A stretch of 64,000 nt of DNA from Bilabrum cf. latius (lineage: Eukaryota): positions 930,001 through 994,000 of the forward strand of contig OZ237751.1 in the NCBI GenBank assembly GCA_965178125.1, given 5' to 3'. This document shows, piece by piece, positions 33,529-56,700 of this stretch. The position numbers and the translations under genes are program-made. The notes under the pieces are model-generated. The model ran no database searches, was not told the DNA's origin, and was given only the letters and a program-made list of their open reading frames with translations. Every line of letters starts with the position of its first letter. Positions within the stretch are counted from its first letter, which is position 1.

Positions 33529-36500
33529 TCAGCTGGAGCCGCCCCCAGTCGCCTGCACCACCGCGCTCGGGTCGTACCCGTCCAGAGGGTTGCGCGTGGT
33601 GGCGCTGGGCCCGGTGGCCCCCGAAGCTCCCATCAGGTTCTTGCCCGACTGGCCCCTCGTCATGGCCCCCCCCTCGGCAGGGGCAAACCCAGGGGCTGCC
33701 TTGCTGCCGCCCGATGATGACCCGCCCGATGATGACCCGCCCACGGGGATGCGCACCACCCTGTCCACGCCGTCCTCCCCGCGCCTGACCTCGGTGCGGT
33801 ACTGCTGGCCCGTGGTCTCGGCCGCCTGCCTCTCGGCGAGTCTCTGCGAGTCGGACTTCTGCCTGCAGAACATGACGAGCGCGCCCGCTGCCACGCCGAT
33901 CACCAGAGCCGCGGCCACGAGGCCCAGGGCCACCTCCAGCCCGAGCTTGCCCTTGTCGTCGCCCTTGCCGCCGCCGCCAGAGGCGCCCGGGGAGGCACTC
34001 ACACCGGGCCCCTCCGTGGGCACGGGCAGCCCGCTCACGGAGGGCCTCGCCGTGGGCGCACCGGTGGGGTTGCCGGGCAGAGAGGACGGCTGCGCGGGGG
34101 CAGCGGACACCTGCGGCGAGCTCGATCCATCTCCGGGGTCCGCCAGGGAGCTGACGGGGAAGCCCGAGAGGTCCGTCCGCAGGTCGCCCAGCAGCTGCCC
34201 GCTGGCCCGCACGGACCGCATGACGGACCGGACCGTGCCTTCGTCCGCGGCGGTCTTGATGTTGACCTGCACCGTGACGGCCACGCCAGAGGCGCCGGCC
34301 GCCTGTGCCCTCCTTCCGGCAGACCTGAGGAGCTGCCTGCGGAGGGAGCTCCCTTCCTACTCCTGTCGCTATTCTTCTTCTTCTTGTCCTTGTCCTTGTC
34401 CTTGTCCTTCCTGTTGCTGCAGGGGGCTGGCAGGGGAGGTGGAGGGGGTCGGGTTGGCCGAGGGCGAGGGAGCCGCCCAGTCGGCCACTTTGACCACCAG
34501 CACGTCGTCCTTGGCGTAAGGGGCAGAGGGGGCGGGGGCACCGCCCTCGCCCGCGGAGATGTAGCCCGCCACGCGCGTGCGCAGCGCGCTCGTCACACCG
34601 GTGTCGAACTGCCCGCGGCTCACGCCCTCCATGACCCACGTGGTGGTGACCACGGCGCCCGCGCCCGCGCCGGCAATCGAGGAGCTCTGGCACACGCCGG
34701 TGCCCATGCCCAGAGAGAGCAGAAGCGCCCTCCCCGTCCACTCCACCGGCCCCATGCCCTCCTACTGGCTCGGCATGGCAAAGCACTGCGCGCCCGACTC
34801 GCAGTCTGAGCTGCTGCTGCAGGCGAACCCAGTGGTGCATCGGCGAGTGCACGGCCCGCCGCAGTCGACGTCCGTCTCACCCGAGTCCTTCCGACCGTCG
34901 AAGCAGCTGGCGCCGCCGTCCGGCACCACAGTTCCGCAGTTGTACCCGGAGTAGTCCGGCTGGCAGTTGCACTCCGCCACCGGCGTGTCAGACCCGGGCA
35001 GAGTCACCGCTCGGCACTGCCCGTGCCCCGAGCACGTGACCTGCTGGCAGGGGGGCGCGGGGGAGGGCAAGGGTGTGGGAGCGGGCCCGAACTGGTCCCA
35101 CTTGACCATCGTCCACGCGGGCGTGCTGCCCCCAGTCACCGCGCCCGCCGCCACTGAGACGTTCAGCGCCACCTGGGCGTCGACGGTCTGCGGCTTGTTG
35201 AAGAAGAAGGTCACTTCAAAGATCTGAGACCCGGTGCTGGCGTCCGCCCCTCCCACGCTCACGATCCCCTCAGGCTGCACCGAGATGCTGTCCGCCGTGA
35301 ACCCAGAGACCCGCTTGTTGAAGCTGAAGGTGGCCTTGAACGGCTCGGACCCGTCGTGCAGCCGGGGCGCGATGATGGACAGGGTCGCGGGGGCACCCGC
35401 AGGAGGCGGGCGGGTGTATGGCAGCTGCAGCGCCTTGGAGGCGTAGTTCTGGATGCCCTCCTCGCCCACGGAGTTCACGCAGCCCTGCAGGATCTGCAGG
35501 GTCATGGTGCCCAGCGCCGCGGGGCTCACGGTGAAGCTGTAGTCCCTGCCCTCCGTGTCCTCCTGCTCGACGCCGGACACGAACGCGCGCGTGCCCGTGA
35601 CCTGCAGGCACGTCGCGGCCATGCCGGTCACGGGTCGGTCGAACGAGGCCACGACCTTGACGGTGGATCCCCTGCCCTGGTGGGAGGACGGGCCCGTGAG
35701 GATCACCGTGGCGGGAGGGGCTTGGTAGGTGACTGTCCTCGTAGCCTGCACGTTCTGCTGGCCCGAGGAGCCCAGCACGTTGGCTGGGACCGTGATGACG
35801 ATGTCCGTGGGGTCCGTGGGGATGAGCTGGAGCCTGGCGAGGGTCGTATCCGATGCCGAGAACGGCTGCGAGAACCGGTTGTTGAGGATGGTGGCGCCCT
35901 CCACCTGCACCACGCTGCTGAGCGGGCGGTTCTAAATGCCCGGCATCTCCTTGGAGAACTAAATCGTCACCTGGATGCCGTCGAACTCGCTGCCCCGGCC
36001 TGTGGGCCCCTGGTGCACGGTGGTGGTGAAGATGCTCGGAAGGGCGGGGCCCGGGGCGTCGGGAGCGTACGTCACCCTCAGCGAGGCGAACTCGTTGCCC
36101 GGCAGCGCGAATGAGTTCGAGGGCAGGAAGAGGGAGATGTCGGCCTCGGCCGTGGGGTTGATCTGGAACTGCAGCACCGTGGTGGGGAACGACACGCTCA
36201 CGTCGCCGAAGAGGTTGTCGAAGCCGTTGAGGGCTACCAGCTGGCCGACCAGCCAGGTGCGGATGGCCTGGTCGTTGCTCTGGTCGATCGTGGAAGGGGG
36301 CCGCACGGGGCTGCTGAGCGTGGCAGTGACCAGGAACGGGTCCACTCCGTTGTGGGTGGCGGGTGCCTCAAGCGTCGCGTTGGGTCTCTGCACCCCCGCG
36401 GCTCCCTCGGTGAAGGGGGTCAGCTTCCTCGCGAAGAAGTTGCCCTGGCTGAAGCCCAGGTCGTTCCCTGGGACTGTCACGGAGATGGACGAGAACTGCC

Positions 36501-38394
36501 CGGCGCGGTTGGCCACCGGCAGGATGGCAGCCACGAAGAGGGTGCCCCCACTGGTTACGTTCCACTGGTTGTTGGGGTTGGGTCCCACCAGCCGCCCCCC
36601 GGTGATGGTAAGCTTGGACGGAGGGAACAAATCGGGGCGGCTGATGGGCGCGTTGAGGCGAATCGTGACGTAGAGTGGTCTCGGCACCGGGTTGTTGGCC
36701 GAGTCGTTGCCCACCGTGTAGAAGGCCGGGCCCTCGATGCCCACCTGCACGGTGGGGCTCTCGCTCGTGTAGCGGATGAACTCGAGGGGGCCCCGCTGGA
36801 AGGTGGCGTTGGGGAAGGATTCCAGCTGCACCTGCACCGACGGGAATCTGCCGCCGTCACCCGCCTGCGCGGACACGTTGAAGAAGTACGTGTTGGATGC
36901 GTCGTCGTAGTCCTCCGCGGGCCACGTGTTCCTCAGCCATTTGCTGCTGATGAACCCGCCCGTCACGCGGAAGTTGTTGCCGTTCAGCGCGGTGAGCGGG
37001 TTGCCGATGTTCTGCTTCTGCTGGGCCGACAGGAATACCTGCAGGGTCAGGGGGATGTCGAGAGAGTTGCTCTCCGAGTACGAGTCTGGTCCCTGGAGCG
37101 CGAAGCGGATGGGACGGTCCCCGCCGCCACCGGGGGTGCCCCCGCCCCCCGCGTTGGGGTCAAATCGGATCAGCTGGGTGAAGTTCTTGTTCCCCGGAGG
37201 CGCGAAGACGTTCTCTGCCACGGAGATGGTGAAGTTCTCGTCCGTCGTGGGGAACAGGGTGAAGCGCACGAGCGTGCCCGGGGTGCCGAAGCTGGATTCG
37301 AAGGCCTGGAAGGAGCCGAGCTTGAACCCCGAGGAGCTGAGCTACAGGATCGACTCGGACACGTTGTTGGCGTCAACGGGGGGCGTGATCCTGATGTTGC
37401 CGAAGATCTGAGTCGTGGTGGGTCCGTAGGACGTGGCTCCCGTGTACTCCAGCGTAGCCCTATCGATGTTCGTCCCGCTGCCGTCGAACTGAATGGCGTC
37501 GCTCCTCGTGGCTGCGTTCGAGGCGGCGCCCAGCGCGTCCTGCTGCACAGTCAGGCGCATGGTGCCGGTGGCCCGCGGGGTCAGCTCGACGTCGTAGTTG
37601 AGGCACTGCCCAAAGGTGCAGCGAGGGGTGACGTCCGTGACGGTGCCGCCCGACAGGCCGAGGCTGGAGGTGGAGAGGGGCTTGTAGTCGGCGGAGTTGA
37701 TCGGCCCCCGCTCAAACACCACGTTGGCGGTGACGGTCTTCTGGCTGGCTATGTAGTAGCTGGGAGCCGAGATGCTCGCCTGCACCCGTGCGTCCGCGTT
37801 GGGTGAATACTGGCTGGAGAAGAACGCGGCGTTGTTCCCCTGGTCCACGGAATCAGTCGGAAGGAACAGACGCACGAAGTTGCTCAGGCCGCCGCTGCCG
37901 GACGAATCAGCGTTTGGCTGTACGCTCAGCACGAAGACAGTCTTGGGCTGTTCCATGTAGACGGCTTGAATCGTGCAGGCCGTCGTTTGGAAAATTGAGG
38001 CCGTCACGCCATCCACCGGCTAAGTGAACCCGACACTAATATTGAACGGAGCAGTGCGCTCATTGTAGTACCTGCGCGCTTGATGGGGCAAGGAAGTGGC
38101 TGAAGGAATTGCCATGCGCCTGCTTGGGTCTGCGCCGTGGACATTTCTCTTGCACGGAGGAACACCGCGGCAGATTCCAATCAATACAGAAACGCTCATC
38201 GAATTAGAATAATTTTAACCAAGGATAGGGCGAAAGTCCTTGCAACAAACGATCTGGACGGATCGCGGGCTCATGAATCCACGGATAGGCTTGCAGCTTC
38301 TGTTGGCTCACGATGGTCCTCTGAACGAAGCAGATACCTTTCCCAGAGATTGTGAGATCCCACATAGCACAAGTGCCAGCGCTAGCGCGCGCAT
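33529..38394 (-). CDS. Type I surface receptor/adhesin A: signal peptide, tandem Ig-like beta domains, EGF-like and ETDVDCGG Cys-rich module, TM, cytoplasmic tail (~1540 aa); intron 38072-38311
   Basis: Exon 1 is MRALALALVLCGISQSLG. Five ORFs lie in one frame joined by TAG (7 in total). Contains CSGHGQC..CNC..YSGYNC, CFDGRKDSGETDVDCGGPC and a TM (VALGLVAAALVIGVAAGALVMFC); ends at TGA. Confidence 0.82.
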
Positions 38395-38641
38395 TGTGTT
38401 GCTCCACCGATATCTCGCGTGGAAGACTCTCGGGAAATCGAATCGAATAGGAGAGGATGAATTAAACTTGTGTGGTTGCAACCGGCCGTCGCCGCAGCAG
38501 ACGTGCAGGGCACTGTAGCACGAACGACGAGGACACCGAACACGTCGCCAGATACGCGAAATTGCAGAGGTGGCAGTAGAAAACTTACGATTTTAGAACC
38601 AAATACTGAAATATTGCAAATTTGTGGACGTACAGGCTTGC

Positions 38642-40822
38642 ATGGGTTGCGGTATCTCTACGGCAGAGGAGCAAAATTCGTCGGCCTAGGTGAGCGGAAA
38701 TGGTGACATTAGAAGTATTATTCGACCATTGTCAGAAGTATCAGCGGTACTTGCATTGTCTCAGCGGCTCGTCGATTCCATTGACATCCATTGCATCCAA
38801 TTCTACGCGTCGCAGTCACAGCTGCCACGAACGCAGCAAGCTCTAGCGCTGACTGGCAAGCCACGTGGTCTAGCCGGCTTACACGACCAAGCAAAGAAGG
38901 GCTTGGACTATGCCACAGCTCAAGATCTTTCGAATTCCTGCCCCTATCCGATGCATTCTGCTGGCGCGAAGCCACGGCTCGCTGTCTCAACTGTTGGTAC
39001 CGCGGTGCACCTGGAACAGTCGAGCTACAGGCCCGGGGCACAGGCGCAGCTCATCCTGGATAATGCATCGCTGAGGCAATGCCTCTCATTGCTACCAGAT
39101 ACTAGCACTCAGTTCTGGTGCGTTGCAGTCCAGCGCTCGTCCCGGTCCAGGGTCTTCTTCGAGCCGGGACAGGCGGAAGCGACCGTTCTGTCGTAGTGGA
39201 TGGGAACAACCACTGAAGCCATTGAAGGCGCGATATCGCAGCACGCTGGGCTCGTCGGCTTGGATACGTATACGAATATATGTACCGATGTGCTGCCTGA
39301 TCGAACAAGCGAGAGTTGCAGCGAAACACAGCGACCATTCGCTTGGTCGCTATCGAGCATGTGTGACAACGCTGACGTGGTCGCACCGAGGCATTTGCAC
39401 GTGCGCATCTCAGACAAAGCAGCGCGGCGCCAGGGCAGAAAGAGCAGCATTGCTTCAACCGGTATCCAGCCGGCTCCGCCCGCAGATGCCCTGAGAGTCA
39501 CGAGACCGACGGAGGAATCGTGTGGCAGCGGAAGCAGCAGCGGCAGCGGCGGCGCTGATGCTGCATGCACCATCGCTTGCAGCAGAAGCAGAAGCAGAAG
39601 CAGAGGCAGCCCCTCGCCGACGGACAGTGCATCATTTGAGCGGGAGGTGCTACGAGCAGCGGGGGTCAGGAAGCGATCGAAGAGGCGCGGGCGCGGGCAC
39701 CCCGACGACGTCGGTCTCGATGGGCCTGCTGTGCTGCCCGTCGGCTCATGCAGGCAGGTTGTTTCAGTCGCTCCATCCCTGCTCCCTTACCCTCCCCCAG
39801 GAGATTTATCGCAGCAGCTGCAGCAGCTGCCAGTCCCATGCGAACAGCCGGTGCTGGTGCCTCGCCGCCCCGAGGGAACAAGCGAGAGGGGTAGCTCCAC
39901 GGTGAGCGTGCTCGACGTTGAGGACGAGAGATCGTGGAGCAGGTTGCAGGGAGCCGGGGAGCAGCGGAAGGGGGACGCATCAACATCAAAGGGCTCCGAG
40001 TTGGCGAAGGAAGGAAGCACTGGCACGCTCAGCTTGGCGGGCGGCTCGATGGTCAGCGTGTCCCGGTCACCGGGTGCAGGCCGCTGCCGGGTCGTGGTCG
40101 ACCAGGCGAGCACCCGCTCCTCGAGCAAGTGCTCTGCCGTGTCACCGGAGAGCACGCGGGGCGATGCCTGGCACAGGGTGCCAGGCAGCACGAAATGGGG
40201 CAGATGCGGAGGCACGGGCAAAGGCAAGGGCAGGGGTATGGACGATCGCGAGGCGGGCGGCGGTGGCTTGGTGATGGAGGCTGCTGCGAGTGCAGCGGCT
40301 GCCACGAGAGCGAGAGAGCCGGGTTCCCCTGATCCTGCGGCGGGCTGGTGCGGGCATGAAGGGGAGCAGGCCGGGGTTGACCAGCACGACTGGCAGATGG
40401 GTCGTGTGCAACTGCGCGTCAGCGAGGTGATTGTGCCTGATTGGGAGCAGTTGTGCAATTCTGGCGGCAGATCGGAGGCTGGGGAACAATAGCGTGGGGA
40501 TAACGCAAGAAGGAATGGGGTTGACAGTGCTGGTGCTGGGGCTGGGGCTGGGGCTGGTGATAGTGCTGGCCTTCGGGGCGTCCTGAAAAGGGGTTCGACA
40601 GCGGGATGGAGAGTGGCCGATGGTGCGATAAGCTCTGGCTGCAGGGACAAGGGGTTTGACAATATCATCCGACTCAAGCCCGTGTTCCTGCTCCGGACCC
40701 GAGGGGCGGCTTGGACATGGCTCATGCGTCAAGGGGCCTTTTTGGCTCAGTTCAAGCGCATCCTCGGGCTGCACTCGATGGTGGTAGTTGGGATGGAATA
40801 TGCAGTAGGAACTTCCACTTGA
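38642..40822 (+). CDS. Uncharacterised MGCxxS family, copy 1 (possible in-frame intron 38690-38815)
   Basis: Starts MGCGIS. Shared blocks FWCVAVQRSSRSRVFFEPG, AWSLS and RLKPVFLLRTRGAAW. One frame via 3 TAG; ends at TGA. Confidence 0.7.
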
Positions 40823-41037
40823 TATGAATGCCTTCATGCTCGATTTCTCGTCGTCGAGGGCCGGAATGCCGGCATCATCGTGCGGTGCAGCCGCCTCGGG
40901 CTGGTTCGTTGATTGGATCGCCGTAGGTGGCATTCGAAGCTGCGTCGTGCGCTAGACAGGACAACTCGCGGTGAAAATACGGCTAAATTCTTGAGCTTTT
41001 TATTTAGTTGTTCACATTGTTCACATAAGCGTACACA

Positions 41038-43271
41038 ATGGGGTGCATGATGTCGACATCAACCGCAGCACTAATCGTGAGCTTGCGACACCATCGCTCT
41101 GATTCAATGACGGCGATATCTTCGGCCCATCCAGTTGCGCATCTGTTAAATAGTCCCTTGTCGCTTGATTTCATAACAATGAATCGTAATATGCTTGCAA
41201 ACTATATTATTCACCGCAGGGCATGGAAGGGGGCACTGTTTCTACACCTTCGAAAGAGACACGTACCTCGCCACAGGGGACACCACAGGCTCAAATGATA
41301 AATTCGCCTCGTGCGGGGCAACATGAGACTGCCATTATGGGCGGGAAAGGTACTTTCGGCACCGTTTATTCGTATACTGCGGGCGGATCAACAGGCGCCG
41401 AGAAATGTCGAGCTACTGCCGACCAAAGTGGTGCAATCGGTGCTTGCTGCACACACAATCACACTCAAGGTGCTGTGAACAACTGCCATTGCATAGATCA
41501 CAGCGTGGATGTGTGGATCATTGCTGTCCAGCGCACCGACCAGCCCAGGGTATTCTTCGCGCCTGGCAGGGTAGAGTAGCAGGCTGTCACTCGGTGGCTT
41601 AGCGGGGCGACCACCGTGCTTGACCGGGTGCTGCGAGAGCACAAGAGCAGCAGCGGCAATGAAATTCAAGAAGAAGCCTATCAACTCCATTCAGCTCGCG
41701 CGGGAAGCAATGCGGCCGAGTGGGCGACGGCACGGGCCTGGTCGCTCCCGGGCGAGTGCAAGCACGATGGCGTCTAGATGCCGGGGCAGCTACTTATCGT
41801 GGAAGCCGAGCAATTTGCAGTCGCAAGAGGACTTGCCGGCGATATGTGCTCCTCTCAATCGACTGGCTCGGCGAAGAATTCCACAGCTCCGCAGGCCACA
41901 CGCATGGAAGCATTTGGTCGCTCGAGCGCACCGTACGTGTACTCAGTTTCTGACCAGCTTCAGGCCAGTGCTCCGATGCAGCTACCACGGGAGCAACTCC
42001 AGACAGATAATGCAATGCATACTAATGGATCGAGGCGGCGCAACGGCTTCCTTCCTCTCTGTAGGCCGCCAGCAAGCAGCGAGCGCATTTTATCCTGCGA
42101 CCCCGTCCTCGGAGGCAAGCTACTCGCTGCGATGGGCGTGCGCGCACCCGCTGCAGCATCAAGGCGTAGGGCCCTCCGAACATCAGCCCACCTCACCGTG
42201 ACAGCATCACCGCAAAGCATCGTGCGGATTGGAGCCTCCCTACTGCCCCCGAACTGGCAGCAATCAACGTAGCAGCCAGCCGGTGCCGGCGCGAAACCAT
42301 CACGCAGATTGGCCCAGCGGGCGGCGGACACGCTCTACTTCTAGGAGCAAGTGGCCTGCCTCACGAACCCGAGGTTCAGAGAGACACTTGGATCCACCAC
42401 CAGTCTCGTCGCGGCCACAGCAGAGCAGGCATCGGTGAAGCAGGCGGCGGCATGTGCAGGGCACGAGGCCCCGAGCGCAACGCTGAGCGTGTCTCGCGGG
42501 GCCGATGAATCATGCGCAGCGTCCTCCGAGCCTCACAGCCCTGCCAGGCATAGCAGCTCTACCACCACAGTGGGCCTGCAGGGTGACCGTGCGGCGTGCG
42601 ATGCAGGCGCGCCCACTGGAACCGTTCCGTCCCATGGTTGCGCCAACTGGCCGGTGCAACCGCAATACGTGAGATCCGTCAGGAGCATCATCGGCATCGG
42701 CATCGGCATCGGCATCGGCATCGGCGCGCAGCAGCCTAGCCCGGCACTAAAAGGCGAAAACCGAGCCGGCCTGCCCGCCACAGCCAGTCCCGCGCATTCG
42801 CACTGCGTGAAAGCAGCTGGACTGGCTGGGACTGGCAGTGGAAGCCAGGCAGCCCGAGGCCTCCCTCGCCACGTGAAGGTGGCCGGTCCCCCGGCAGCTG
42901 CCTGCATCTCCCATTCCCGAATACAGGCTGTTCCAGGTCTGTCCGGCCCTCTGCAGCAGCGCCAGCAGAAGCCCCCCCAAGGCCAAGTGCAGCTCCGTCC
43001 CGCGGAGGTCATGCTGCCACCGGGCCACCGACTGCACCCACCACAGCCTGCCGCCGATGGAGCCATCCCCAGAGGGTGCATGGCCGGGAATGGTTCCCCT
43101 AGTACGACAGAGGTTGCCCGACTCAAGCCCGTGTTCCTGCTCCGGACCCGGGGTACCGCCTGGGCCTGGCTCATGCGGCAGGGGGCCTTTTCGGCTCACC
43201 TGCGGGCTGTGCTGGGGCTGCACTCGATGGTGGTGGTGCGAATGGAAAGGATCGCGGGAGAGACAATGTGA
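41038..43271 (+). CDS. Uncharacterised MGCxxS family, copy 2; intron 41077-41219
   Basis: 13-codon exon 1 (MGCMMSTSTAALI), GTGAG...CGCAG intron, the same conserved blocks, 4 TAG; ends at TGA. Confidence 0.72.
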
Positions 43272-43513
43272 CTGGGCGTGATATAACAAAACCATACCGT
43301 TATATGCTGTATTGCTCAAGCGTTTCTATGTCACATGTTTCTGCTCAAGGTCTATCGCCGGCGGGCGCGCATCAGGATGGTGCAGTCGTCTGCTCGAGCG
43401 CGAGGTGGTCGCAGGAGCAGACTGCGCCATTTACGCCCGCATTCGTCTACAAACTGCACTCTCCTTTATTCCAGGTTTGAAAAGTACACGGCTTGGACTT
43501 GAAGTCGTGCCAT

Positions 43514-45751
43514 ATGGGGTGTGCAGCCTCAGAAGTACCCGCAAACCACGATGTATGTCCTGTTCGCGTGTATGCGACGTGCACAGGGTACTCCCTTAGC
43601 CCTTCAGCACACAATGGATAGCATCACACGCGTCTAAAGATCCCATTTTAGACATATCAAAATGAAAATGCTCGCGACTGCTCTTTGCTATCGCAGGGTG
43701 AGGCAGAAATCATCGATTTTACGAAGAAAGCTGGGGTACGTACGTCGCACACACAGACGCCTGGGTCGATAATTCAGGACCCTACGAGAATCAGGCAAAG
43801 CGTTGGTGCAAACCGGCAGTCGAATCATACATCAAGCAACAAAGATTCGTATTCCGGTGGTAGGTCACCTGATGCCGACAACCGTCGAGCTACGGCCGGA
43901 CGTCATAGCGCAATCGCCGGCGGCTCCCGACGCACAATCTGCGGCTGTAGTCAGCTTGCCGGGCTGATTGATCGACAGACGAGCAACGACGTAAATGTAT
44001 GGATCATTGCAGTCCAGCGCACCGACCAGCCCAGGGTATTCTTCGTGCCCGGCAGGGTTGAGGAGAAGGCTGTCACCCGGTGGTTTAGCGAGGCGACCGC
44101 CGTGATTGACCGGGTTCTGCGAGAGCACAATGGCAACAGCGAAGGGAAAATACCGAACGGTGCCAATCACAACCATGCAGCGCCTGTGGGAGGCAATGCG
44201 GCCGAGTAGACGGCGGCCCGGGCCTGGTCGCTCCCGGGCTCCGAGCACGATGGCATCGAGGTGCCGGGGCAGCTGCTTCTCGTGGAAGCCAAACCGAGCA
44301 GCACTACGCAGACGAGTGCGCGTGATTGTATTTTATTCCGATCGCCGAGGGGCCTCCTGCTGCAAGCAGACGACGCCTGCACTGCCGGGACCGCCAGCCC
44401 AATGATCACGCCCGCACCTCACTGCTCAACTCAGCCGGCAGGTGCAGCGCCGGAGGGGTGCACCAGCCAGCCTGGCTTTATTGCGCGCCCGGCATGGGGA
44501 AATGACCAAGGGCTCGCCATCTTGCGGGATCGAGGCGATGCCACGGGCGATGCCGGAGACAAGCTGCTGGCAGCAATTGGCGTGCGCACCCATTCGAAGA
44601 GAGCGGCGAGGGCGATGGGACGGCGAGGAAATCTACCCAAGGTGGCGCGGCCGGTCAGGCAAGCATTCTGTGTTCCAGTCCTCGATCTAGATACTAAAAG
44701 CAGCGTGCGACTAGATGCATAGCTGCTTCCTCTGGGCTGGCAGTGCACCCCCAAACCGACGCCGGCACGCCGCGCCGCTTTTCCCCCTCGATTGCGTTCA
44801 GCAGAAGCTGCGATGGCTTCCAAAACGGGTTGCCAAGCCACATTTAGAGCTGGGGCTATTAGTTCCACGCTGAGTCTGGCCGCACCCCCAGAGGACTCGA
44901 ATCATGGATCCACACGGACAATGCGTTCACACCATGCCAGCGGGCGAGACACGCAGCCTTCATCCTCGGGGAGTCATATGAGCACCACTGCACCAGCCAG
45001 AGTGAAACCGGCACACCAGACTCGCTACCAGGCCGCGACCATAGCGAGCGCGGGCACCGGGGCAGACCAAGGTCCGCGGAGTCCCCTGCGGCGTCGATCC
45101 AGCGACACGAACGCTGCTAGTACTGCCAGCTCACTTGGATCTCGATTTCAGGAGGCAACTGCCGTGCCGAGCGAGTCCCGAATCTTGGCAGCAATCGCTC
45201 AGGTCACACTTGGGGATGGGGTGCCGGCAGACGCTGTACTAGTGCATGAGAGTTAGCCTGCCAACAGGAGGGCGACTGCATCGAGAGAGCGCCGCCTTCG
45301 CTCTCCCATAGGAACAGGGGCATGTACTCGAACAGGTCGGTCTACCAGTTTTGCATCGCTTGGCGTGGTTGACGGCGATCCTGTACCACCGCTACCGCAG
45401 TTGCAACTGTAGCAGCAGTTGCAACTGGAGCAGCAGGAGCAGCATGAGCAGCAGGATCCAGTGCCCAGTGCGCTGCACCTTCGCCCCACAGTGGTCATGC
45501 TGCCACCGGGCCACAGGCTGCACCGATCCGAGCCCGCTGCTGATCCATCACATCCCATGAAGCCCGAAGCTGATAACAACGCTAGTGTTGTATCCACGGC
45601 TGCTGCCCGACTCAAGCCCGTGTTCCTGCTCCGGACCCGTGGTGCCGCCTGGGCCTGGCTCATGCGGCAGGGGGCCTTCTTGGCTCACCTGCGGGCGGTG
45701 CTGGGGCTGCACTCGATGGTGGTGGTGCGAATGGAACGATTCGATCAGTAA
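43514..45751 (+). CDS. Uncharacterised MGCxxS family, copy 3; intron 43553-43696
   Basis: 13-codon exon 1 (MGCAASEVPANHD), GTATG...CGCAG intron, the same blocks, 4 TAG (one within QLQL*QQLQL); ends at TAA. Confidence 0.72.
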
Positions 45752-45825
45752 TGCAGCGTGGCTGGGCCACCTTGAGAGCTTGTCAGAACGAGTCATCCGG
45801 TGATCTAAACATGTAGGAGGTCAAG

Positions 45826-48090
45826 TCATGCAACTTTACGCATTCCTGTAATACAGTCGCTCGCCCGCTCCAACCTCACAACCGCCATGGAGCTCAGCCC
45901 CAGCAAACGCTTCAGTCGGGCCAGAAACACCCCTTGCTTCATGAGCCAGACCCATGCCGCTCCCTGGGTCCTGAGCAGGAACACGGGCTTCAGTCTGCGC
46001 AGGTCTCCTCTCCATGATTGACTCTGCCATCAATGCTGCTGCTGCTGCCATCCTACGAGGCAGTTTCCTTGTTGCTGTGCCGCAGTGCAGCCTTGAGCGC
46101 TGCTCGAGGTGCACGGCTTGCCTCTGCACCTATGAGCGATTCGCCCACTGGCAGCATCACCTCAGCTGGAGAGAGTGCTGTGAAGGCCGCGGTAGCAGGC
46201 CTCTGATTTTCGGTCTCGAGCGGTGCCTGCGACGCATTTGGGGGCACTTTGGTGCTACCAGTTTCAGGATGCGACTACTTTGGATCCCGTTGGCAAGTAG
46301 GCACAGCGGAATCCTTCTTTGTCTTTCCTACACCTCCAACTCCAGCCCACTATGCGCTTGCCTGTCGTGGTGATAGCTTACAAGCCTGTGAGCTGCCCAT
46401 GGGTCCCAATGGTGACTACAACTCTGATTCGCACTATCCTGAGACTCTATGGCTATCCGTACCGAGCGGATGCACCGAGTGGGCCTGTGCTTGTAGCCTG
46501 TACCTGGCTGCAGCTGTCTCGCTGCTACCAGTACCGGGAGCAACCTGGGCAGAGTGGGCATGGCTCGACCAGTCGAACAGCGAGGACCACTGCGCCCACC
46601 TGCTCTGATTGTCTTTCGGGGTAGTACCTTGAAACTGGGAGCTCGATGCGCTCTTTGCTTGATGCGAGTGCCCCTCGGGCTCGAATCCAACTACGCTGCC
46701 GGAGCGGTCACTTGCCGCACCAGATTCCCGCAGCCTGCTCCAGGACCTCTCGTCCTCTATATCTAGCACGCTCAGGGTGGAGCTGTGCGGATCATGACCG
46801 CTCTCTGGGCTCTCTATCATATGCTGCGAGCTTTCGGTGCCGTTGAGAGTTGGAAGGCAGTGTAGGTAGGGGAGCAGGCCTGGTGCCACCGAGATGCACT
46901 GCTCGCACGAAGACACGGGGAATCCGTTGGAACCACCCATCCGTCGGCACTGGTGTGGGTCTAGTTTTCCTTCTGATGGACCGCCGTCCTCGTCTCGGTC
47001 TCGATGCTTCACACCTGCCGCTCGCAGCACCAGGTTGGCGAGTGATCCAGCCTATGGGTGCAAACCCTAGCAGACGGGGGGCGGCGAGTCGATCCCTCCT
47101 GGTCTGCCTTTGCGTCCATCTGGACTGAAATATCGAGTCTCTCTGGGTTCACAGGCGCTGGAGCACCATAATCCTCCCCTGCTGCGGTCCACGCCACATC
47201 CTGTGGAGTGGTCCTGCAGCCGCTCGTTGACTTCAAGTTGCGGCTCGTGGCATCCGACCGAAGGCGAGCTCGCAGTGGAGTCCACTACGCCTCCACACGT
47301 TTCTACTTTTGCTGCCGGCGATGCCGGTATGATATCAATTGCAGCATCCTCACTTCCGTGCCCTGTGGTCGGGCTGCCAGGTGCACACGTGGTCACGAGG
47401 AGGTGGTCCGGCGACGCCACCGTGACGTCAGCAAGCGCGCCCGTCAGCGACCAGGCTTGCGGTCCGAAATCCGGCGTAGTACCCACGTTTGGCTGCCCAT
47501 AGCTCGCAAGCGATCGTTTGTTGTTGTTTCCTGGGCCGGAATCCCTGCCTGCATCCGTCTAATCGGTGCTTTCGGCTTTTGCGTCCGGCTAGACGGCACC
47601 ACGTACGGCCTTGTTCGTCCTTTGAAGCCAGTCCGAGACGATGCTAGCCTCCACAATACCAGGAGCAAAGAATACGCGCGAGCTTGGAGTGCGCTTTACT
47701 GACACGATCCACATCTGTACGTGATCTGGCTCTAAACTGGCCAAGCACGACTGCAGGGACTGCCGACGACGGGCCCGTGCTGGCGGTGTCTTTCCGACTG
47801 CTTTGTGGCGTAAAACCCGCCGAGTCTTGCACTGCAAAACTAGATTTGTCCCGTTGCTGTGGCCCGTAGCCTGAGGAAGCCGACAGCCCGACATGTTGGC
47901 ACTTGCAGGCCTGCTTGATTCTTGTATCGAACGTACTACAGAAGTCCACGTGTATACCTGTGGGGCAAATCAATTCCAAGCATTCTGCAGGAGTACCAAT
48001 TTTTTTTACTTGTTAAACAAGCACTTCTTCTTTGCAACCGTCGTGACAGCATTTGAATGCCACCTAGCGTCGATTGTGCCACCTCACCCT
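45826..48090 (-). pseudogene. Inverted, probably disrupted copy 4 of the same family
   Basis: WIVSVKRTPSSRVFFAPG, AWSLTG, VLRAAGV and SVLDIEDERSWSRL are in one frame via TAGs. That frame hits TGA just before the C-terminal RLKPVFLLRTQGAAW block, which lies in another frame. No MGC start found. Confidence 0.55.
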
Positions 48091-48421
48091 GACAACCAAG
48101 GAAGTTTCTCGCTGAATTCAAAGAGTTTTGGATTTACCACCACGCAATACGCGAATAAAATGTACGTCCCAAAGTGGTGCGCCGTAAACTTCAAATCCAA
48201 TTTTGAGCAGGAGCAGTAGAAGTGCCGAATGGATAGGCTCATGATTGGCGCCGCATGGACTGCGGAACCAACTACCATGACGTGGAGTGATCCGATCTAC
48301 AAAAATCCTGAAGTTTTGACCGATTCTAAAACGAATAGAGTACGTCATCGTAACAACACGCAAAATGAAATTTCTGGGCTATCCGGCCGATCAGGAACAG
48401 ACGGCTGGCGACACGCACCAT

Positions 48422-49083
48422 TTACTCACTCCCCCGATGGCAGGCCCGATCGGCGATCCCATCAAACCCGTCCCCGCCCAGCTGCCCGCGCCCCTCTGCC
48501 GGGGCGATGCTGGGCCCGGAGGACCCCGAGGAGTCGGAGTCGTGTGACGAGTGCGATCCCCTGCCGCCGCCGCTGCTGCCGTAGGCCGGATTGACGGCGC
48601 CGAGGGGGTGGTACATCACGCTGGCGCCGCGACCGGCGCCGCGCATCGCCTTGGTTCCGCTGCGCACGGAGCTGGACTGCATGACAGTATCCCCGCGACC
48701 TTTCGCATTGGAAGCCGCGCTGGACCCGCCGATGCCCCTGCCAGGGGCCTGCACCCCACTGGCACGGTACACCAGGTAGCCCAGCGCCATGACGGCCACC
48801 GCCAACACGGCAGCAAGGATGCCAAGCCCGGCCGCCAGGCCCGTCGAGGCTCGTCCTCTGGAGCCGCCGTCCGAATTGCCGGCGTCCTTGCCATCGGGGA
48901 GGCCTGCATGCGGCTCGGAGCCGGGTCCGGGGTGTGTGGATCCGCCGCTTTGACCACCCCCTCGCCGCCATCGGTTTGGCCACCACCATCGCCACCCGCA
49001 GCGGGAGCCGGGGTGCTGCTGGGCACAAGTGCATCGTCCGCACTGCTTGTTCCCCAGAGCAGCTCTAGACGATCCAACCTCAC
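48422..49083 (-). CDS. Possible small single-pass membrane protein or fragment
   Basis: TM-like GLGILAAVLAVAVMALGYLVY followed by a Gly/Ser-rich tail with NPAY, ending at TAA. The apparent stalk lies in a different frame, so the 5' structure is unresolved. Confidence 0.3.
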
Positions 49084-49465
49084 CCTCGCGGTCCTGCTAG
49101 GTCGCCGCGGATGGTGCCGATCAAGGCGTCGATGCTTGCCGCATCACCGAGGCCCAGCCCCAACGTGCCCAACCAAACAAACTCAACGCGTTCCGAGTCG
49201 TGCTCTAAATCACGTCATCTACCTCGCCCAGAGTGAGCGTCCTGGCAGTATCGATCTTGTCCTGCAGCTCGTCATAGTCATCAGAGAGCAGAGAGCAGCT
49301 CCACCGGGTCGCCCTTCCTGTCGCTCGCTACCTATTGTTTGTTTTGAAAGCACACCAAGCCATTTTCAAACAGATTATGAAGGTGGCACTGATCGATGAG
49401 CCCGAGGGTAACTGGCCTGGTGCAGACCTTTGCTTTTCACCCCAACGAGCAAAAGCAAGCAGGTC

Positions 49466-52400
49466 TCATCCTGTGCCGTCCTCGACGGCTCCTCCCAGCC
49501 GGAACGTGGTCGTGAACTGCGGAAACAGTCCACCGGGAGGCTTCCTCCTTCCCCTAGCCCTGCCAACGAGGTGCTCGTCCGTGTCATGACTCCTGGCCTG
49601 CGCCAGGTGCGCCTCCCTCAGCCGGCGCCGCGCAATCGCTCCAAGTTCCGTAGTGGCGGCCCGCCGCGCGGCCTCCTCGGCGCACGCCCGCACCACCCGA
49701 TCCTCGGCCGCCTCCAGCCGCGCCCCCCTGGCCCTCCTCTTCGCCCTGGCAGAGGCAACCCTCCTCTCCGCCTCGTTGGACCGGAGCCCGGACTCCATCG
49801 CCGCCCGCGCGCTGCTCACCATCACCGCCTCCCGCTCACCGGGGCCCACCGCCGATGGCACAAGGCCCAGCCGGAGGGATGGGACGCGAAGAGTATGCGA
49901 AGTGGAAGGTGCTGACGGTGCGTTGCCTCCCCGCTTGGCTGCCTCGGGCGGCGGGCTCACCTGCGGCTGCACGACGTGCCTCGAATCCACGGCGATCTCC
50001 CTCTGCAGCTTGGCTCCCCTTCTGGTGGGGCGCCGCAGGGGTGACCCCCTCAGGGGGTCCTTCTGGTTCCGCTGCTCCAGGGCCTCGAAGGCGCCGCGGG
50101 CCCGCGGGTCGAAACCGCCCAGACGCCTAGGGGCCTTCTCACCTGCCCCCTTTGCCGGCACCTGGTTCTGTGCGCCCTACAACGACGACGCCGATCCCTC
50201 CGATCCGATCCCTGATCCGATCCTGGGAGACCTGTGGCCCATCAGGCAGGACTCCCCTCCCGCGCTCGTCTCGGGGTCCTGCCGCAGGAACCCCGCCCCT
50301 TGTTCCACCCTCGGCGAACGTTCCGCGATTGCGCGGCGCCGGTGCTCGTACGCAGCGAGTCGGTCGGGTGCTACGGGGTGCCTCGGCGCGGCCCGAGGTG
50401 ACAACTTTGATGGGCCAGCTGCGGCCATCGTATCGGACTGCTCCTGGGCCCGCTGTCCGTGCGGCCTTGTTCCCTGGCCATCATGAGTTTCCTGATCCAC
50501 GAGCTGCATGGCTGCTCGGATGGTTGCTTCCCGAGCGGGCGGGTCCCCCCGGATCCCTTGTTCCCTGGCCCTTAGTCGCTCCTCTCCGCTAACGAGTGCC
50601 AGATCCTGCGCGTGGCCCAGTCGGTCCCTGGCCTCCTCAGCGCGCTGTGCGGCTCCCAGCAACGAGGGGTGCACCAGGCGGCGGCCAGGCCGGTGGCTGG
50701 GGGCGCGGCGGGATGAGCTGCCGGTGGCTGGGGGCTTGGTGCTGTCGCTGGCTCCAGATGGAGATGTTGAGGATGGTACCTCGGCTCCATTCCTGTTCCC
50801 CACAGGGTCCTCCATTGAGACCTGTATAGCGGGCCGGTCGTCCCTCTGTGCAGGAGGCTTGGGATGGCCCATCCTGACTCGGAGCTGCTCGTCGTAGTAC
50901 GCCTGGGCTTGGACCTGGGCATGGGCCTGCTGGATCTGGGCCTCTGCTTGCGCTGGCTGTGCCCCGGCGTGGTTGCCTCCAGGCTGAATCGCCTCACCCG
51001 CAGCAGAGGCACGCGCCACCACCTCGCGGGCCAGACGAATCACCCGCTGCTGCGCCGTCTCACTCGTCACACCACCAACCTACACGCTCGTCACACCTCC
51101 CAGGGCCCCGCCCTCCTCATGCGCCTCGGCTCCCATCCTCGGCCCCCTGCCCCCGGCCTCCGTGCGCCCCTGCAGCGCCCTGCTCACCGCCAGCGCGTCA
51201 CCTAACTGCACGTAACCGTCCTAATTCGGATCCAGGAGCGCCGTCATGGCGTCCACTGCGGCCCTGCTGGCGGGTGGAAGACCTACACTCTCCTCGTCCC
51301 CCACGGCCTGCCCTGCCCTGCGCGGCGAGCTGGCCCCCGCTGATGCCCCTGCTGATGCCCCTTCACCTTCCCCCTGCTTCCTTGTTCCCTAAAGATCCAC
51401 GTGCACGCCCGCCTTGAGGCAGCGCTTGGCCCGCCGGATCAGCTGCGCCCGCACGTCGCGAACGTTCACGAACCCGCAATCCCGCTCGTCAAGCTGCCGG
51501 AACCACGCAGACACCCCCCGGTCCGTCGCGGGCAGCACGCTCACCACCTCGTCCGCCCCGTGTGCCGCCGCCTGCAGGAACCGCAGTGCAGTGCCCCCCT
51601 GTTTGTCCACCTCCAGCCTGGCGCTGTTCCCCCCGGCCCGCGCCCCCGGCGGCACTCTCCTGCCCCTGGCAGCCGCCTCCGCCGCCCGCCTCGCATCCCT
51701 GCCCTCGTCGTCCAGGGCCCTGCACAGCTCCGAGTACTGGATGACCCCGTCGCTGTTCCGGTCTACCAGCCGCACCAGCCTGTCGGCCTCCTCCCGGTTC
51801 AGCTCCATGCCCAGGTGCCGCAGCCCAGACCGGAACTCCTCCCGGGTCACCACCCCGTCCCTGTCGGTGTCCAGCCGGCGGAAGGTGCCCACGGCGTGAT
51901 GGTTCACCGCCCGCTGCTGCAGCACCAGGAGGGCCTGCTCCGCTGTGGTGGGTTTCGGCCGCACGAGCTCGTGCTCCAGCCGCTCCAGCACGTCGGCCTT
52001 GCTCTATGCGAGCGCGGCGCGCTGCCGATCCAGGGCTGCGCGGGCCGACTGCACCTGCCCCCGCATCTGCTTCGAGGTCTTTCTGCCTTCTCCTTCTCCT
52101 GCTCCTCCTCGTGACTTGCCCTCAATCTCGTCGATGTCCTCCCCCGCCTGCACGCCCCCACCCACAGATGCGCGGCGCCCCTTCTAATTCCGCAGCGCGC
52201 CCTCGATTGCGGAACTTCCTTTGCGCGGCGCCAGACGGTCGAACAGCGCCATGTAGGGCACCCTGGGCCCCTGCGTCTAGCCGGCGCCCGCGCTGTCACC
52301 CGCCATCAGGCGTCCCCCAACCCCACCCCCAGCAGCGCGCTGCCTGGCAGACGAAGGCACCGCGCCCGCCCCTGCGCCCCTCCCCCTTCGACCTCTGACC

Positions 52401-53473
52401 GGCACGCCCAGCTGCCTCGCCAGCCGCACTACGTTGTTCCCCGAGAGCATCGCACCCTCCCGTGGCAGCAGCCGCTGCAGCGTGCCCGCCAGCGCCTCCG
52501 CGGTAACTGTTCCGGTGCTCATCGGGTCTAGCTGCTGCAGCCGCTGCTGCACCGCCTCGAAGGAGCGCGCGTTGAGGGCGCCGCGCAATCTAGATTCAAG
52601 TTCCGCAGCCGTCTGCACCTGGGACGGTGTCCCTGAAGATGCCTACTTTCCTTCTTCCGATGTCGATTTCGACTCCGAATCCTGCTTGGTCTCCGGGCCC
52701 TTGGAGGGTTCCGCGACAGCGAACCTTAGAGAAGCCTGCCTCGGGTCGACACCCATTTCCTCCCCTTCGGGCGCCTGGCCCATGGACACCCCCCGCATCC
52801 CGCCCCTGAGCTGCCTCTGCCTGGCCTTGCGGAGGGCAGAGGCGGCGCGCTGTCCGGGGGTCAGGAGCATGCGTGGGGGTCCGGGGCCCAGGGGGTGCTC
52901 GGTGGGGTTGTGCTCGCCCGCTGGCAGTGCCAGTGGGGCGGCTTCCGATTTGCTCTCCCACTCGTCATAGTCATCTTGTTGGGAAACGGGATCAGCGCCT
53001 AGTGTTGCCCTGTTGGAGGCATCTGTAGCGGCGTCTCGCTATCGCTTCTACCTGGCACCGTTCTCTGGGTATCCTTTGGTTCGGAACCGGCTGGGTTCCT
53101 GTGTCGAGAGACGGTTGGCAGCCGCTGCGTGCGGAAACTTTGCCACCTCTTGGCGCCGTCCGTCCATTCTAGCGATTGCCACTGTCGGAGCATGCTCTCC
53201 ACGGATGGCTGCAGCAGTGTAACCCTATTGCAGGCTTGCTCCTTGCGGTTCTTGCGCACTATACCTAAACTTTAACCGAGCAGCGTCACCCGACCGCCCA
53301 GCAGACTTCTTTGCTGGGGCAGCACCACCGGGCGCAAGCCTTTGGGTAACGGAGGCTATGATGTCTGAATGCTTGCTATTACTTTTTGGTCGTGGCGATC
53401 CACCTCGTTTCCCCTTGCCTTCCACCTTGGCGAGAGTTGCAGCGGCCAGTTTGCTGGTCCTGGGCGACGCCAT
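49466..53473 (-). CDS. EF-hand calcium-binding protein, ~1335 aa
   Basis: EF-hand loops DTDRDGVVTREEF, DRNSDGVIQYSEL, DERDCGFV and DPN*DGYV. Six ORFs lie in one frame joined by about 11 TAG; ends at TGA 49466-49468. Confidence 0.75.
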
Positions 53474-53717
53474 TCTGGCTGTTTGCAGCGCTTGGCCCCT
53501 CTATCTTTGGGACAAATTCGTAGACCCAGTGGTCACATTACGAACACGTCTTCGCATTCTGCCACAATAGCGTGAAATGCCTCGTCCTAGGCCTCGCTGA
53601 ACGGAAACCAAATTGCGCGGCGACGGCGGTCGCCACGAGGTTCCGCTGTGTGGTACCTTGGTCGCTGTTGACTCCACCTGGATCATTTCTAGGGTCCTGG
53701 CTTCGCAGGAATCCAAA

Positions 53718-56700
53718 ATGAAGGCCGTATCAATGGCTGCACTTGCACTTATTTCTATTTCTTCTGCAGTGGCGCAGACCACCAGTGTTTCGGCGCAGAT
53801 GAAAGGCCCCTCGTGAGCCTTGTTGTGACAGTGCTGTGTCTGCCCCATATTTGGCCGCTTGTTTGGGATTCTGATGTTATTGAGCGCGTTTTTTGTGGTT
53901 TATTGTTGAATCAAGCGAGTATAAGGAAGTCTTTGGGGCATTAAGCTGCCAAGCGATGCCACGGGTGCCCGCTGCCACGGTGCGAATCTTCAGAATTGCC
54001 GATGTACTCCCCATGATCTTCTCTTTCCTCCACTCAGGTACTTCAATGAGCGCACGACACCTTTCAATGTCACTTTGGGCTTCAGCGCGCCGGTGTCTGG
54101 GATCGACCAGTCCTCCTTCCGCGTGTTCGGCGCAAACTTGGTGCAGCTGATCACCCTTTCCAAGCAGATCTACAAGCTGACGGTGACGCCTGGCACCAAC
54201 CGAGACGGCAGCATCTCGACCTACATGCAGGTCAGCCTGCTGCAGAACTCCGCGGACCAGGGCAACAGCCCTGCCTTCTACACGTCGCAGTACAGCGAGG
54301 ACGCCGACAAGCCGGGCTCGGCCAACCTGGGCGCCCCGTCCTACTACACCACCGGACAGACGAGGCTGCTGGTCCAGACCACCTTTTCGAGGGGTCCCTT
54401 GAAGCTGGAGAACTACCGCTTCCTGCAAGAGGACCAGGTCACCGTGTCGGGTGGGGCGACCCTGGACGCGGTGCAGGCCACCTGCCCACGGTTCTAGGGG
54501 GGGCCGCTGGGGGGGGAAGAGCCCGCCGTGCTGCCCGCCAGCGATGGGGACGTGCCCATGGCGGCAGATGCAGAGGCCGAGGGCGGCGCCCGCCGCGCGC
54601 AGATCTTGCCAGGGTTCGGCCCTTGCCTGCTCTACACCCTGGTGCTCAAAGTGGCGGGGGGGCCCAACCGGCAGGACATCTCCATCGCGGTCAACAAGGA
54701 CGCGCTGGGGAAGGACTCCAACGCGGCGGCCCAGGCCACGATCCAGTTTGACCAGGGGGGCCGCATCGATGAGGCCAACCTGACGTACAACGGGCGCACC
54801 ACGTACGGCCCCAACGACCAGGCAGTGTTCGGCTCCGTGACCATCACTCCCTACGTGGACCCGGAGAACATCACGAGCGACATCCTCACCATCGAGAGCC
54901 CCGACGTCATCCTGGCCAACTTTCAGGCGTTCGGGGGAGGCGGCTTCGGCAGCCAGACGCCCTCCACCTCTCTTCGGTTCACGCTGTACCCCACCGTGGA
55001 AGAGAACTTCACCATCTCCATCCCCGAGGACAAGCTCCCCCAGCCGGGGAACAAGCCGCTCTCCCAGACGATCCGGTTCACGGGCAGCTCGAGCGGAGGG
55101 GGGACCCGCCCAGCGCGGCCCATCCGCTTCACCATGTCGGGGCAGACCCAGTTCGACGAGGAGACCGCGGCGAACGTTCCTTTCTCGCTGCAGGTGTTCA
55201 TCTCTGACTCTCTCAAGCAGAGCATCGGGGACCTCACCCAGCTCGTGTCGGCCAGCAACTTCCAGGTGACCGGCGGCGGCTTCATCAAGCGCGAGTGGGC
55301 AGACTCGTGGCCCGCAGCCTACTACGACGACCGCACAACCACCTTCTTCTTCAACGTCACCGTGCCGGCCGACCGCAGCGGCGTCTACCCGTCCCCCATC
55401 CGCGTGTCTCTGCTGTCCTTCCCCAACGCGACCATCGACTCGAGGAGGCCTCCGCAGAGGAGCGCCTTCTTCACCTCTGTGCTGCCCCGCGTGCAGGTGG
55501 GCATCGAGGCCCCCGCCTACTACACCGTAGCCAACGACTCGAAGAACGTGCCCCAGCCGCAGCCCCTGTACATCAACGTGCACCTGGACACGCCACTGGA
55601 CAGGCCCACGCAGTTCACCCCCGGCATGCTGCTGCTCACCGGGTGCGCTCTCACCGGCAACACAACCAAGACCGACTGGAGCTTCACCAACAATGCCCAG
55701 GAGTTCCTGGCTCTCGTGCTGCCGCAGGTGGACGAGGACGGCAGCTTCCAGGACATCTCCATCCGCGTGAACTTCAACTCCCTCGGGTTCACACAGGGGA
55801 ACAACGGCGCCACGGCGCAGCTCTCGTACGAGCCCGGGGTCGCCAACGCCGAGCCCGCCAGCACCACCCTCGAGGTGCCCTCGGTGCACAACGGGCAGGA
55901 CCCGTTCGTCGTCACCGTGTCGTTCGACCAGAGGGTCCGGGCGCCGCGCAGCGCCGGCGGAACCAACCTGGGGTACTGGCTGTCCAACCGCCTCACGGTG
56001 CTCAACGGCTTTGCCCAGGTGTTCCCCGACCCCAGCTACGTGCAGTTCCCCACCACCGAGATTTAGTTCCGGGTGACCCCCCGCTCGGAGGCGAGCGTGT
56101 TCCTCTACTTCCCCTCCAACGTGGTGGCCCTCCCGGGGAACACGTTCAACCGGGTGAGGATCCCCTACGGGGCCGGCACCAGCGCGCCCGCGCTCGCCAG
56201 CATCTACGGCGACGTGGTGCACCAGGGCCCCACGGGCCGGGGCAGCGAGTTCGACGGCATCCTGGTGACGATCCAGTTCTCGCAGGAGATGCCCGGGATC
56301 GAGAACCTGAGGTACTGGCAGGTGGTGCGCGTGTACGGCGGCACAGTGCAGAACTCGCAGTACTCGACCCCTTTCAGCTCCTCATCCACGACCTACGCCC
56401 AGCTGCAGGTGGTCCCGGACGGGCAGGAGGACGTGGTCATCCAGATCCCCGAGAATATCCTGGGCGACGACGGCGTGCAGAACCTGGCCAGCACCAAGAC
56501 CATCACCTACACCCCCGCCCCCGCACTCGTCATCCTCAGCGGGCCCCAGACGCACCAGGGCCCCAGCAGCCTCGTCCGAGTGGTGGCTTCCTTCGACCGC
56601 CCCGTGACGGGCGTGAGCGAGTCGTGCCTGGGCGACCTAAACGAGCGGGCCACGGTCAGCTCGGTCAACAAGGAGGACGACGAGGGCCGCGAGTGGTCCT

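Follow-up and report, generated by a model that had tools for sequence, protein, structure and literature searches.

In the nuclear genome of Bilabrum cf. latius, the codon UAG almost certainly specifies glutamine, and UAA and UGA act as stops. The question arose in a 64,000-nucleotide stretch of contig OZ237751.1 (positions 930,001 to 994,000; the window), where a sequence-only reading had pointed to TAG/CAG exchanges between two paralogous genes, A and B. We followed it through the assembly to which the window belongs (G000; 48.6 Mb in 111 contigs). The window is gene-dense, eukaryotic DNA of 56-72% GC that resolves into long, nonoverlapping genes if TAG is left open, and the same genes are fragmented under table 11. 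In our best explanation, which we hold with high confidence overall, UAG is a third Gln codon with UAA and UGA as the sole terminators, as comparative sequence evidence shows, and the exchanges between A and B are ordinary synonymous C-to-T changes under this code.

Dynein heavy chains provide the largest body of evidence. The set consists of 19 distinct loci out of 28 matches, and 18 of these 19 form a single frame over ~10 kb when TAG is open. Their 61,970 codons comprise 2,258 CAG, 389 CAA, 270 TAG, and no TAA or TGA. The frames were defined as free of TAA and TGA, so the evidence lies in their length. The TAG load reaches 48 in the 3,333 codons of one gene. At columns conserved among the paralogues, TAG stands opposite Gln in 20 of 30 cases, Glu in two, Leu in one, and Tyr, Trp, Lys, or Ser in none. 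The same comparison returns Gln for 208 of 274 CAG and 22 of 30 CAA codons, which is no different from TAG (20/30 vs 230/304; Fisher p = 0.28), and other codons (GAG, TAC, TGG, AAG, TTG, and TCG) each show their own residue. The earlier proposal that TAG is a synonymous Gln codon is thus borne out across the 19 paralogues, among which TAG does not face its single-step neighbors as often as it faces Gln. The TAG share of Gln codons per gene correlates with the CAA share (rho = 0.70) and inversely with GC content at third codon positions (rho = -0.84), which is the behavior of a drifting synonymous codon.

Comparison with 120 dynein homologues, which cover 163 of the 270 TAGs, gives the same assignment at columns that are at least 90% conserved. 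Opposite TAG, Gln occurs at 25 of 41 such columns, Glu at six, and Tyr, Trp, Lys, or Ser at none; the controls show Gln at 299 of 465 CAG and 34 of 51 CAA codons. Counting distinct columns, TAG faces Gln at 18 of 32. The log-likelihood for TAG is -136.6 as Gln and -212.2 as Glu, the next best residue, a gap of 76 log units. Conversely, none of 543 conserved Tyr columns carries a TAG.

Other genes agree with the dyneins. Two of them are neighbors in the window:

28852-31602, minus strand: organellar family A DNA polymerase (PolA) with five in-frame TAGs and a TGA end where all 120 homologues end
29008-29010, minus strand: TAG in polymerase motif C of PolA, Gln in 120 of 120 homologues
31770-33152, plus strand: YjeF_N (NAD(P)HX epimerase-like) gene with a GT-AG intron (32487-32666) and three exonic TAGs

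The other four PolA TAGs fall at variable or unaligned sites. In the gene for the release factor eRF1, the first TAG lies at a site where 89 of 95 homologues have Gln. Contigs spliced at the introns of gene A and the YjeF_N gene (three sequencing runs from two studies) keep every TAG, and over gene A they contain no other letters at these positions. The intron of A appears as a joint in contigs of three of four runs (X1-X3), and the fourth (X4) is DNA-like and unspliced.

Gene ends point to TGA and TAA as the terminators. Homology places the end of 15 of the 19 dynein genes, 13 at TGA, two at TAA, and none at TAG, and the eRF1 gene also terminates in TAA. In two dyneins (L235 and L242), a TAG is read through ~20 codons before the gene end, ahead of conserved C-terminal motifs. 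A family of paralogues in the window supplies another case. The genes at 38219-40822 and 41190-43271 have a TGA after a shared C-terminal motif, and a third has a TAA in its place, which indicates that TAA is a stop:

45749-45751, plus strand: TAA stop of gene 43481-45751, a few codons beyond the shared motif

Separately, the gene at 19582-21990 ends in TAG-TGA (21985-21990), where the TAG may be a terminal Gln codon or the relic of a former TAG stop.

The exchanges between A and B that first drew attention to this code involve the following features:

33529-38394, minus strand: gene A, with a signal peptide exon (38312-38394), a GT-AG intron (38072-38311), and a long exon 2; it ends in TGA and has seven in-frame TAGs
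53718-58406, plus strand: gene B, paralogue of A, with a signal peptide exon (53718-53812), ending in TGA
53813-54037, plus strand: GT-AG intron of B, deduced from sequence and the matching position in A
54495, 56064, and 57813, plus strand: the three in-frame TAGs of B
35959-35961, minus strand: TAG in A that faces the B CAG at 56274-56276; homologues P0363 and P0364 likewise have Gln
56274-56276, plus strand: CAG in B opposite this TAG
56064-56066, plus strand: TAG in B opposite a CAG in A; P0364 and P0368 have Gln here as well
36169-36171, minus strand: CAG in A opposite the B TAG at 56064-56066
35932-35934, minus strand: TAG in A that faces a B GAG (Glu) at 56301, one step from TAG; Gln in P0363
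37342-37344, minus strand: TAG in A; Gln in homologue P0362 (91% identical)
38020-38022, minus strand: TAG in A; Gln in P0362
34357-34764, minus strand: three more TAGs in A (34762, 34369, and 34357) in unaligned Gln/Glu-rich linkers
57813-57824, plus strand: TAG-CAG-CAG-CAG run in B
45410-45412, plus strand: TAG within a stretch of Gln and Leu in gene 43481-45751

When the two genes are codon-aligned with TAG masked as X, 1,380 residues align at 46.6% identity. Both exchanges are present exactly as the sequence-only reading described them, as are the two TAGs that it placed inside Gln runs. Taken alone, the pair is weak evidence for the code. Seven of the ten TAGs in A and B are aligned, and they face Gln twice, Thr twice, and Glu, Ala, and Gly once each. 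With Gln at 5.6% of residues, at least two of seven would face Gln by chance with p = 0.055, so the pair by itself is too thin. Opposite the sense Gln codons of A and B, Gln is about as frequent (56 of 150 tallies), which makes the pair compatible with TAG as Gln without proving it. Metagenomic homologues (14 of 150 matches aligned) help: P0362 or P0363 has Gln opposite each of the four TAGs in the ectodomain of A.

A tRNA that bears a CUA anticodon (tRNA-CUA) is likely the main decoder of UAG. This single-copy gene (C23:907607-907679) scores 69.8 bits, which ranks second among 48 tRNA matches, and it encodes a perfect cloverleaf with a T-run downstream. The genes of its contig also read TAG through. 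Among 46 other tRNA bodies, a comparison that left out one Phe tRNA, tRNA-CUA is closest to tRNA-Tyr(GUA) (50 of 73 positions; Gln(CUG) 44, Glu(CUC) 44, and Gln(UUG) 43). Its acceptor and anticodon stems match tRNA-Tyr at 20 of 24 positions and tRNA-Gln at 12, and a match of 20 was reached by none of 607 pairs of different isotype (mean 8.1, maximum 17). It differs from tRNA-Tyr by C34, A37, G2-C71, and G73, and its D stem is identical to that of tRNA-Gln(UUG). Eukaryotic Tyr determinants are A73, C1-G72, G34, and U35; bacterial Gln determinants include G73, G2-C71, G10, U35, and A37; and amber suppressors of other isotypes become charged with Gln (PMC9976931). From the Tyr-like stems, the Gln determinants, and this known capture by glutaminyl-tRNA synthetase (GlnRS), we infer a Tyr suppressor that turned into a Gln tRNA, and descent from tRNA-Tyr is probable. 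In this scenario, a G34C change in tRNA-Tyr(GUA) would have created the CUA anticodon, which pairs with UAG and not with UAA, and GlnRS would then have captured the tRNA, with the Tyr determinants A73 and G34 lost and G73, G2-C71, A37, and the D stem of tRNA-Gln(UUG) acquired. The 751 codons read of the GlnRS gene itself (L231, C33) include no TAG, and the protein looks ordinary against solved structures, except that one loop is unlike the human one in a comparison made without a lineage control.

Several observations count against this history of the tRNA. It retains C1-G72, a eukaryotic Tyr determinant, and, of the bacterial Gln set, has none of U1-A72, G3-C70, G36, and U38; a eukaryotic Gln set is missing from the review table (PMC9976931). 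Its T arm equals that of tRNA-Ser, which shows that chance likeness between tRNA arms occurs. Scoring covered 63 of 780 tRNA candidates, and intron-bearing tRNAs escape the patterns, so a second CUA tRNA may exist outside this list. A pattern for Gln-type anticodon arms found no CUA tRNA besides the known one (one of nine matches), and the incomplete list also contains no nuclear tRNA-His and no tRNA with the anticodon UUA. Two other features of the tRNA set were noted. The two tRNA-Gln isoacceptors (L023; L072/L073) are unusually unlike, with nine of 24 acceptor and anticodon stem positions in common. Dispersed Met(CAT)-like copies with variant ends (L030, L067, L071, and L078-L080) share an acceptor stem with Pro(TGG) and are possibly a tRNA-derived repeat.

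The release factor is altered near its codon-recognition motifs. With positions numbered by offset from named human residues, eRF1 retains GTS, T32, E55, NIKS, S70, and YxCxxxF. Changes affect L69, the Ser of TASNIKS, the positions preceding GTS, and three positions within YxCxxxF (G29A, N30D, I35V, S60V, L69Q, L126M, N129S, and K130H as human equivalents). Cafeteria eRF1 is canonical at these sites except K130 (Arg), and Bicosoecida CB-2014 keeps the canonical motifs. Changes around the GTS and NIKS loops could have removed most recognition of UAG and kept that of UAA and UGA, and we put the odds that the listed N-domain changes cause UAG blindness at about even. Weighing against such a role, the protein is divergent along its full length, with ~40 conserved columns changed and with T32, E55, and S70 unaltered, which may mean that the N-domain changes are nonspecific. 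Residue 69 (Gln) is encoded by a TAG itself; Gln also occupies this position in six of 95 homologues and is therefore not diagnostic. The N domain contains two TAGs, and a feedback on read-through is possible.

Integrated virophages appear to have adapted to the same code. A 23-kb element of 30% GC on contig C14 (~296,000-319,500; L210, L111, and L112), which was hit by two of 27 random 10-kb stretches, carries genes for a virophage capsid, a penton-like protein, an ATPase, a protease, a primase-helicase, and a chromodomain. The capsid matches PF22031 (MCP_V20_C) at 27.1 bits with a cut-off of 27, the ATPase is of the P-loop type with 80 IMG/VR relatives (kept from 251), and the protease is a weak Peptidase_C57 match. 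Virophage membership is said to need a virophage major capsid protein (MCP), an ATPase, and a cysteine protease (PMC9952930). A capsid search gave 23 matches in four groups (14, 3, 3, and 3), which points to at least four types of integrated virophage-like element. On the evidence of their reading frames, three of these four virophage types use TAG as Gln and the fourth avoids it. The share of TAG among Gln codons is 33% in group 1, 27% in group 2, and 30% in group 4. In group 3 (L219-L223; C21, C36, and C1), TAG accounts for one of 279 Gln codons, in a doubtful open reading frame (ORF), and no TAG lies near the end of any of 23 ORFs, counts that include copies repeatedly; this element makes no use of TAG as a sense codon and apparently none as a stop, and it would be readable under both codes.

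Close virophage copies exchange TAG with CAG or CAA at six of eight distinct sites, which repeats the argument from A and B between far more similar sequences. In group 4, this is so at five of five, and in group 1, TAG stands opposite CAA, AAG, and GAC. The TAG/AAG difference between type-1 capsid copies is a nonsynonymous Lys/Gln change. The virophage genes are AT-rich and mostly end in TAA, and they pack end to end only with TAA as a stop. Their density with TAG open is 0.67-0.90 vs 0.20-0.34, and TAG faces Gln at four of five well-conserved columns of IMG/VR relatives. None of the 80 relatives in the ATPase alignment shows TAG recoding, with a largest density gain of 0.16 compared with 0.47-0.56 here, and the type-1 capsid has no match in IMG/VR. 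Being translated in the host cytoplasm, these viruses could have adopted TAG as Gln (three types) or dispensed with it (one). One of the 14 near-identical type-1 capsid copies (C22) has an in-frame TGA.

Some of these results leave room for doubt about the code. Stop usage depends on 15 homology-defined ends. The sequencing runs with spliced contigs were taken as RNA by a guess, no run being recorded as such, and contigs lose rare variants. Glu is also mildly in excess opposite TAG (6/41 vs 26/516 for CAG plus CAA, p = 0.023; for distinct columns 4/32, p = 0.089). This excess would fit an ambiguous UAG that is mostly Gln and partly Glu or, near mRNA 3' ends, a stop of the kind known from Condylostoma and Blastocrithidia, and the gene ending in TAG-TGA and the small number of ends examined lean the same way. 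Such ambiguity seems improbable, because a single column, with a CAG in another paralogue, accounts for three of the six Glu cases, TAGs a little ahead of conserved C-terminal motifs are read through, and the absence of TAG from 15 ends has p = 0.035 to 0.005 if TAG had a 20-30% share. A ciliate-type table 6, in which UAA and UAG both encode Gln, is the commonest nuclear variant (PMC5304391), and TAA might merely be rare in a GC-rich genome. We give it almost no weight. Were TAA a Gln codon, ~47 would be expected in the dynein codons and none is found against 389 CAA; TAA terminates two dyneins and eRF1; the tight packing of the mostly TAA-ended virophage ORFs requires it as a stop; and no UUA-anticodon tRNA is among those seen. 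TAG and CAG are one transition apart, which would suit editing of the mRNA, and the TAGs could also be errors or pseudogene lesions. The retention of TAG in spliced contigs, without other letters across gene A, speaks against wholesale editing, TAG occurs in every essential gene sampled, with no frameshift and no TAA/TGA, and a dedicated CUA tRNA exists, so these ideas too have a negligible chance of being correct.

A further alternative keeps the code and changes the decoder. Once eRF1 ignores UAG, tRNA-Gln(CUG) could read it through first-position U-G wobble, and tRNA-CUA would be a relic or a minor suppressor of the Tyr type. Two genes for tRNA-Gln(CUG) exist, tRNA-CUA is single-copy and nearest to tRNA-Tyr, and near-cognate readthrough by tRNA-Gln has been reported (PMC13192750). 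We regard this as unlikely. The stems of tRNA-CUA are intact and compensated, and its score is the second highest of the 48 matches, which is not what a relic would show. A Tyr-charged CUA tRNA would leave Tyr opposite TAG, and this is seen at none of 41 columns and, in reverse, at none of the 543 Tyr columns. As many as 48 TAGs in a single gene would also demand efficient decoding.

Proteins A and B, which had been called receptors, most probably serve in adhesion or sensing at the cell surface, and the receptor label is an interpretation of their architecture; for the code, they are of interest solely as its carriers. Both genes have a phase-2 intron after a short signal-peptide exon and encode an ectodomain of tandem beta-sandwiches (Ig-like repeats), a Cys-rich module (EGF-like in A), a single transmembrane (TM) helix, and a short conserved cytoplasmic tail, a layout that makes A a type I membrane protein and matches that of cell-surface receptors:

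33865-33921, minus strand: TM helix of A (Kyte-Doolittle maximum 2.6)
58137-58193, plus strand: TM helix of B

The ectodomain has a weak Pfam match to Big_12, below the cut-off, and Pfam detects no signaling domain in either protein. A structure model of A is of middling quality (pLDDT 67, pTM 0.31) and points to no family; fold comparison retrieves other long chains of a generic Ig-like type at TM-scores of ~0.1. A search with part of A returned two matches, A and B (three candidates scored).

Elsewhere in the window, four paralogous genes at 38219-47969, three in tandem and one inverted, share two short conserved blocks and have no Pfam match or assigned family. A pseudokinase-like domain is fused with ~15 near-identical armadillo repeats at 22371-25940. 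A GH2 beta-mannosidase-like gene (60314-63998, minus strand) ends in TAA and is split over two frames, probably by an intron.

By its gene sequences, the organism is a bicosoecid-like flagellate, a stramenopile that groups with Cafeteria. Cafeteria roenbergensis is the closest named match for PolA (62%) and eRF1 (69%). In a quick tree of this one PolA gene (29 of 120 homologues), it is the sister (SH-aLRT 91) within a clade of five with support of 100. A metagenome contig with a 92% identical eRF1 (L129) has TAG at one site where the assembly has CAG, which suggests that the code probably extends to more than one species; the other 79 of 80 metagenome eRF1 loci are distant (53-67%). The mitochondrial genome (C111, 38.4 kb; L081-L083 and L101) has a separate code with tRNA-Trp(UCA) and TGA as Trp, and TAA terminates 20 of its 20 long ORFs. 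Two types of 18S rRNA, 77-83% alike, are present (L088/L099 at C95:6099-7900 and L098 in an array on C12); C95 is a small contig rich in simple repeats and is possibly from another eukaryote or an assembly artifact.

To our knowledge, UAA and UAG are nearly always reassigned together, and the rare changes of UAG alone are known from transcriptomes or incomplete genomes that did not yield the tRNA. A near-complete genome with tRNA-CUA, eRF1, and GlnRS, together with a standard-looking Cafeteria control, makes two open questions testable: how eRF1 separates UAG from UAA, and where suppressor tRNAs originate. The recoded virophages are eukaryotic DNA viruses that track the code of their host. Annotation under the standard code breaks every gene of this lineage, which is thus probably under-represented in protein databases. 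The literature searched, with subscription journals sparsely covered, contains no nuclear code change in a stramenopile or bicosoecid and no recoded virophages. No such report occurs in the available text of two 2026 Halocafeteria preprints, a stramenopile review, PMC10553269, PMC9952930, PMC2965240, or PMC12152300, and that of the Cafileria paper concerns the mitochondrial code only. What is new here is a tRNA-CUA with Tyr-like stems, an eRF1 altered beside GTS and NIKS, and virophages that use TAG. Taken jointly, we tentatively propose the first nuclear code change in a stramenopile, a Tyr amber suppressor remodeled to a Gln tRNA rather than an anticodon mutation of tRNA-Gln, and recoding of the virophages and by implication a helper giant virus, with the code as a barrier to standard-code viruses.

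The codon table itself is already known from Iotanema, ciliates, and phages. In Iotanema spirale, UAG is also Gln with UAA as a stop, and eRF1 is altered in the GTS loop region (PMC5304391, PMC9161772). It is an unrelated fornicate with T32G in eRF1 (PMC5304391), whereas T32 is intact here and its neighbors are changed. For its decoder, which was not identified, Panek et al. (2017, PMC5304391) predicted an origin from tRNA-Gln(CUG); the tRNA found here is Tyr-like. The ciliates Hartmannula sinica, Trochilia petrani, and Protocruzia tuzeti reassign UAG alone to Gln as well (McGowan et al. 2024, PMC11687900), with no suppressor tRNA detected in the first two (PMC11687900), in contrast to the tRNA-CUA present here. 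Ciliates, unlike bicosoecids, are a known hotspot of recoding. In Rhizarian exLh, UAG encodes Leu and eRF1 has L69A (PMC5304391); position 69 is also changed here, and the amino acid is different. In Escherichia coli, U35 and G73 draw amber suppressors of other isotypes to GlnRS (PMC9976931), which parallels the capture proposed here, although those are laboratory bacterial mutants and this is a natural eukaryotic gene whose charging is predicted.

The virophage elements resemble the EMALEs of Cafeteria burkhardae (PMC8547959) and Halocafeteria seosinensis (10.64898/2026.07.28.741278) in their low GC, length of ~20 kb, several types, and many copies, and they appear to share with them an MCP, penton, ATPase, cysteine protease, and integrase. 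The terms "genetic code" and "translation table" are absent from the available text of these two papers, and three of the four types here need TAG read-through. The crAss-like phages with genetic code 15 also read TAG as Gln and stop at TAA and TGA, and they depart from the code of their hosts (PMC9523058), whereas the eukaryotic viruses described here follow a host that is itself recoded.

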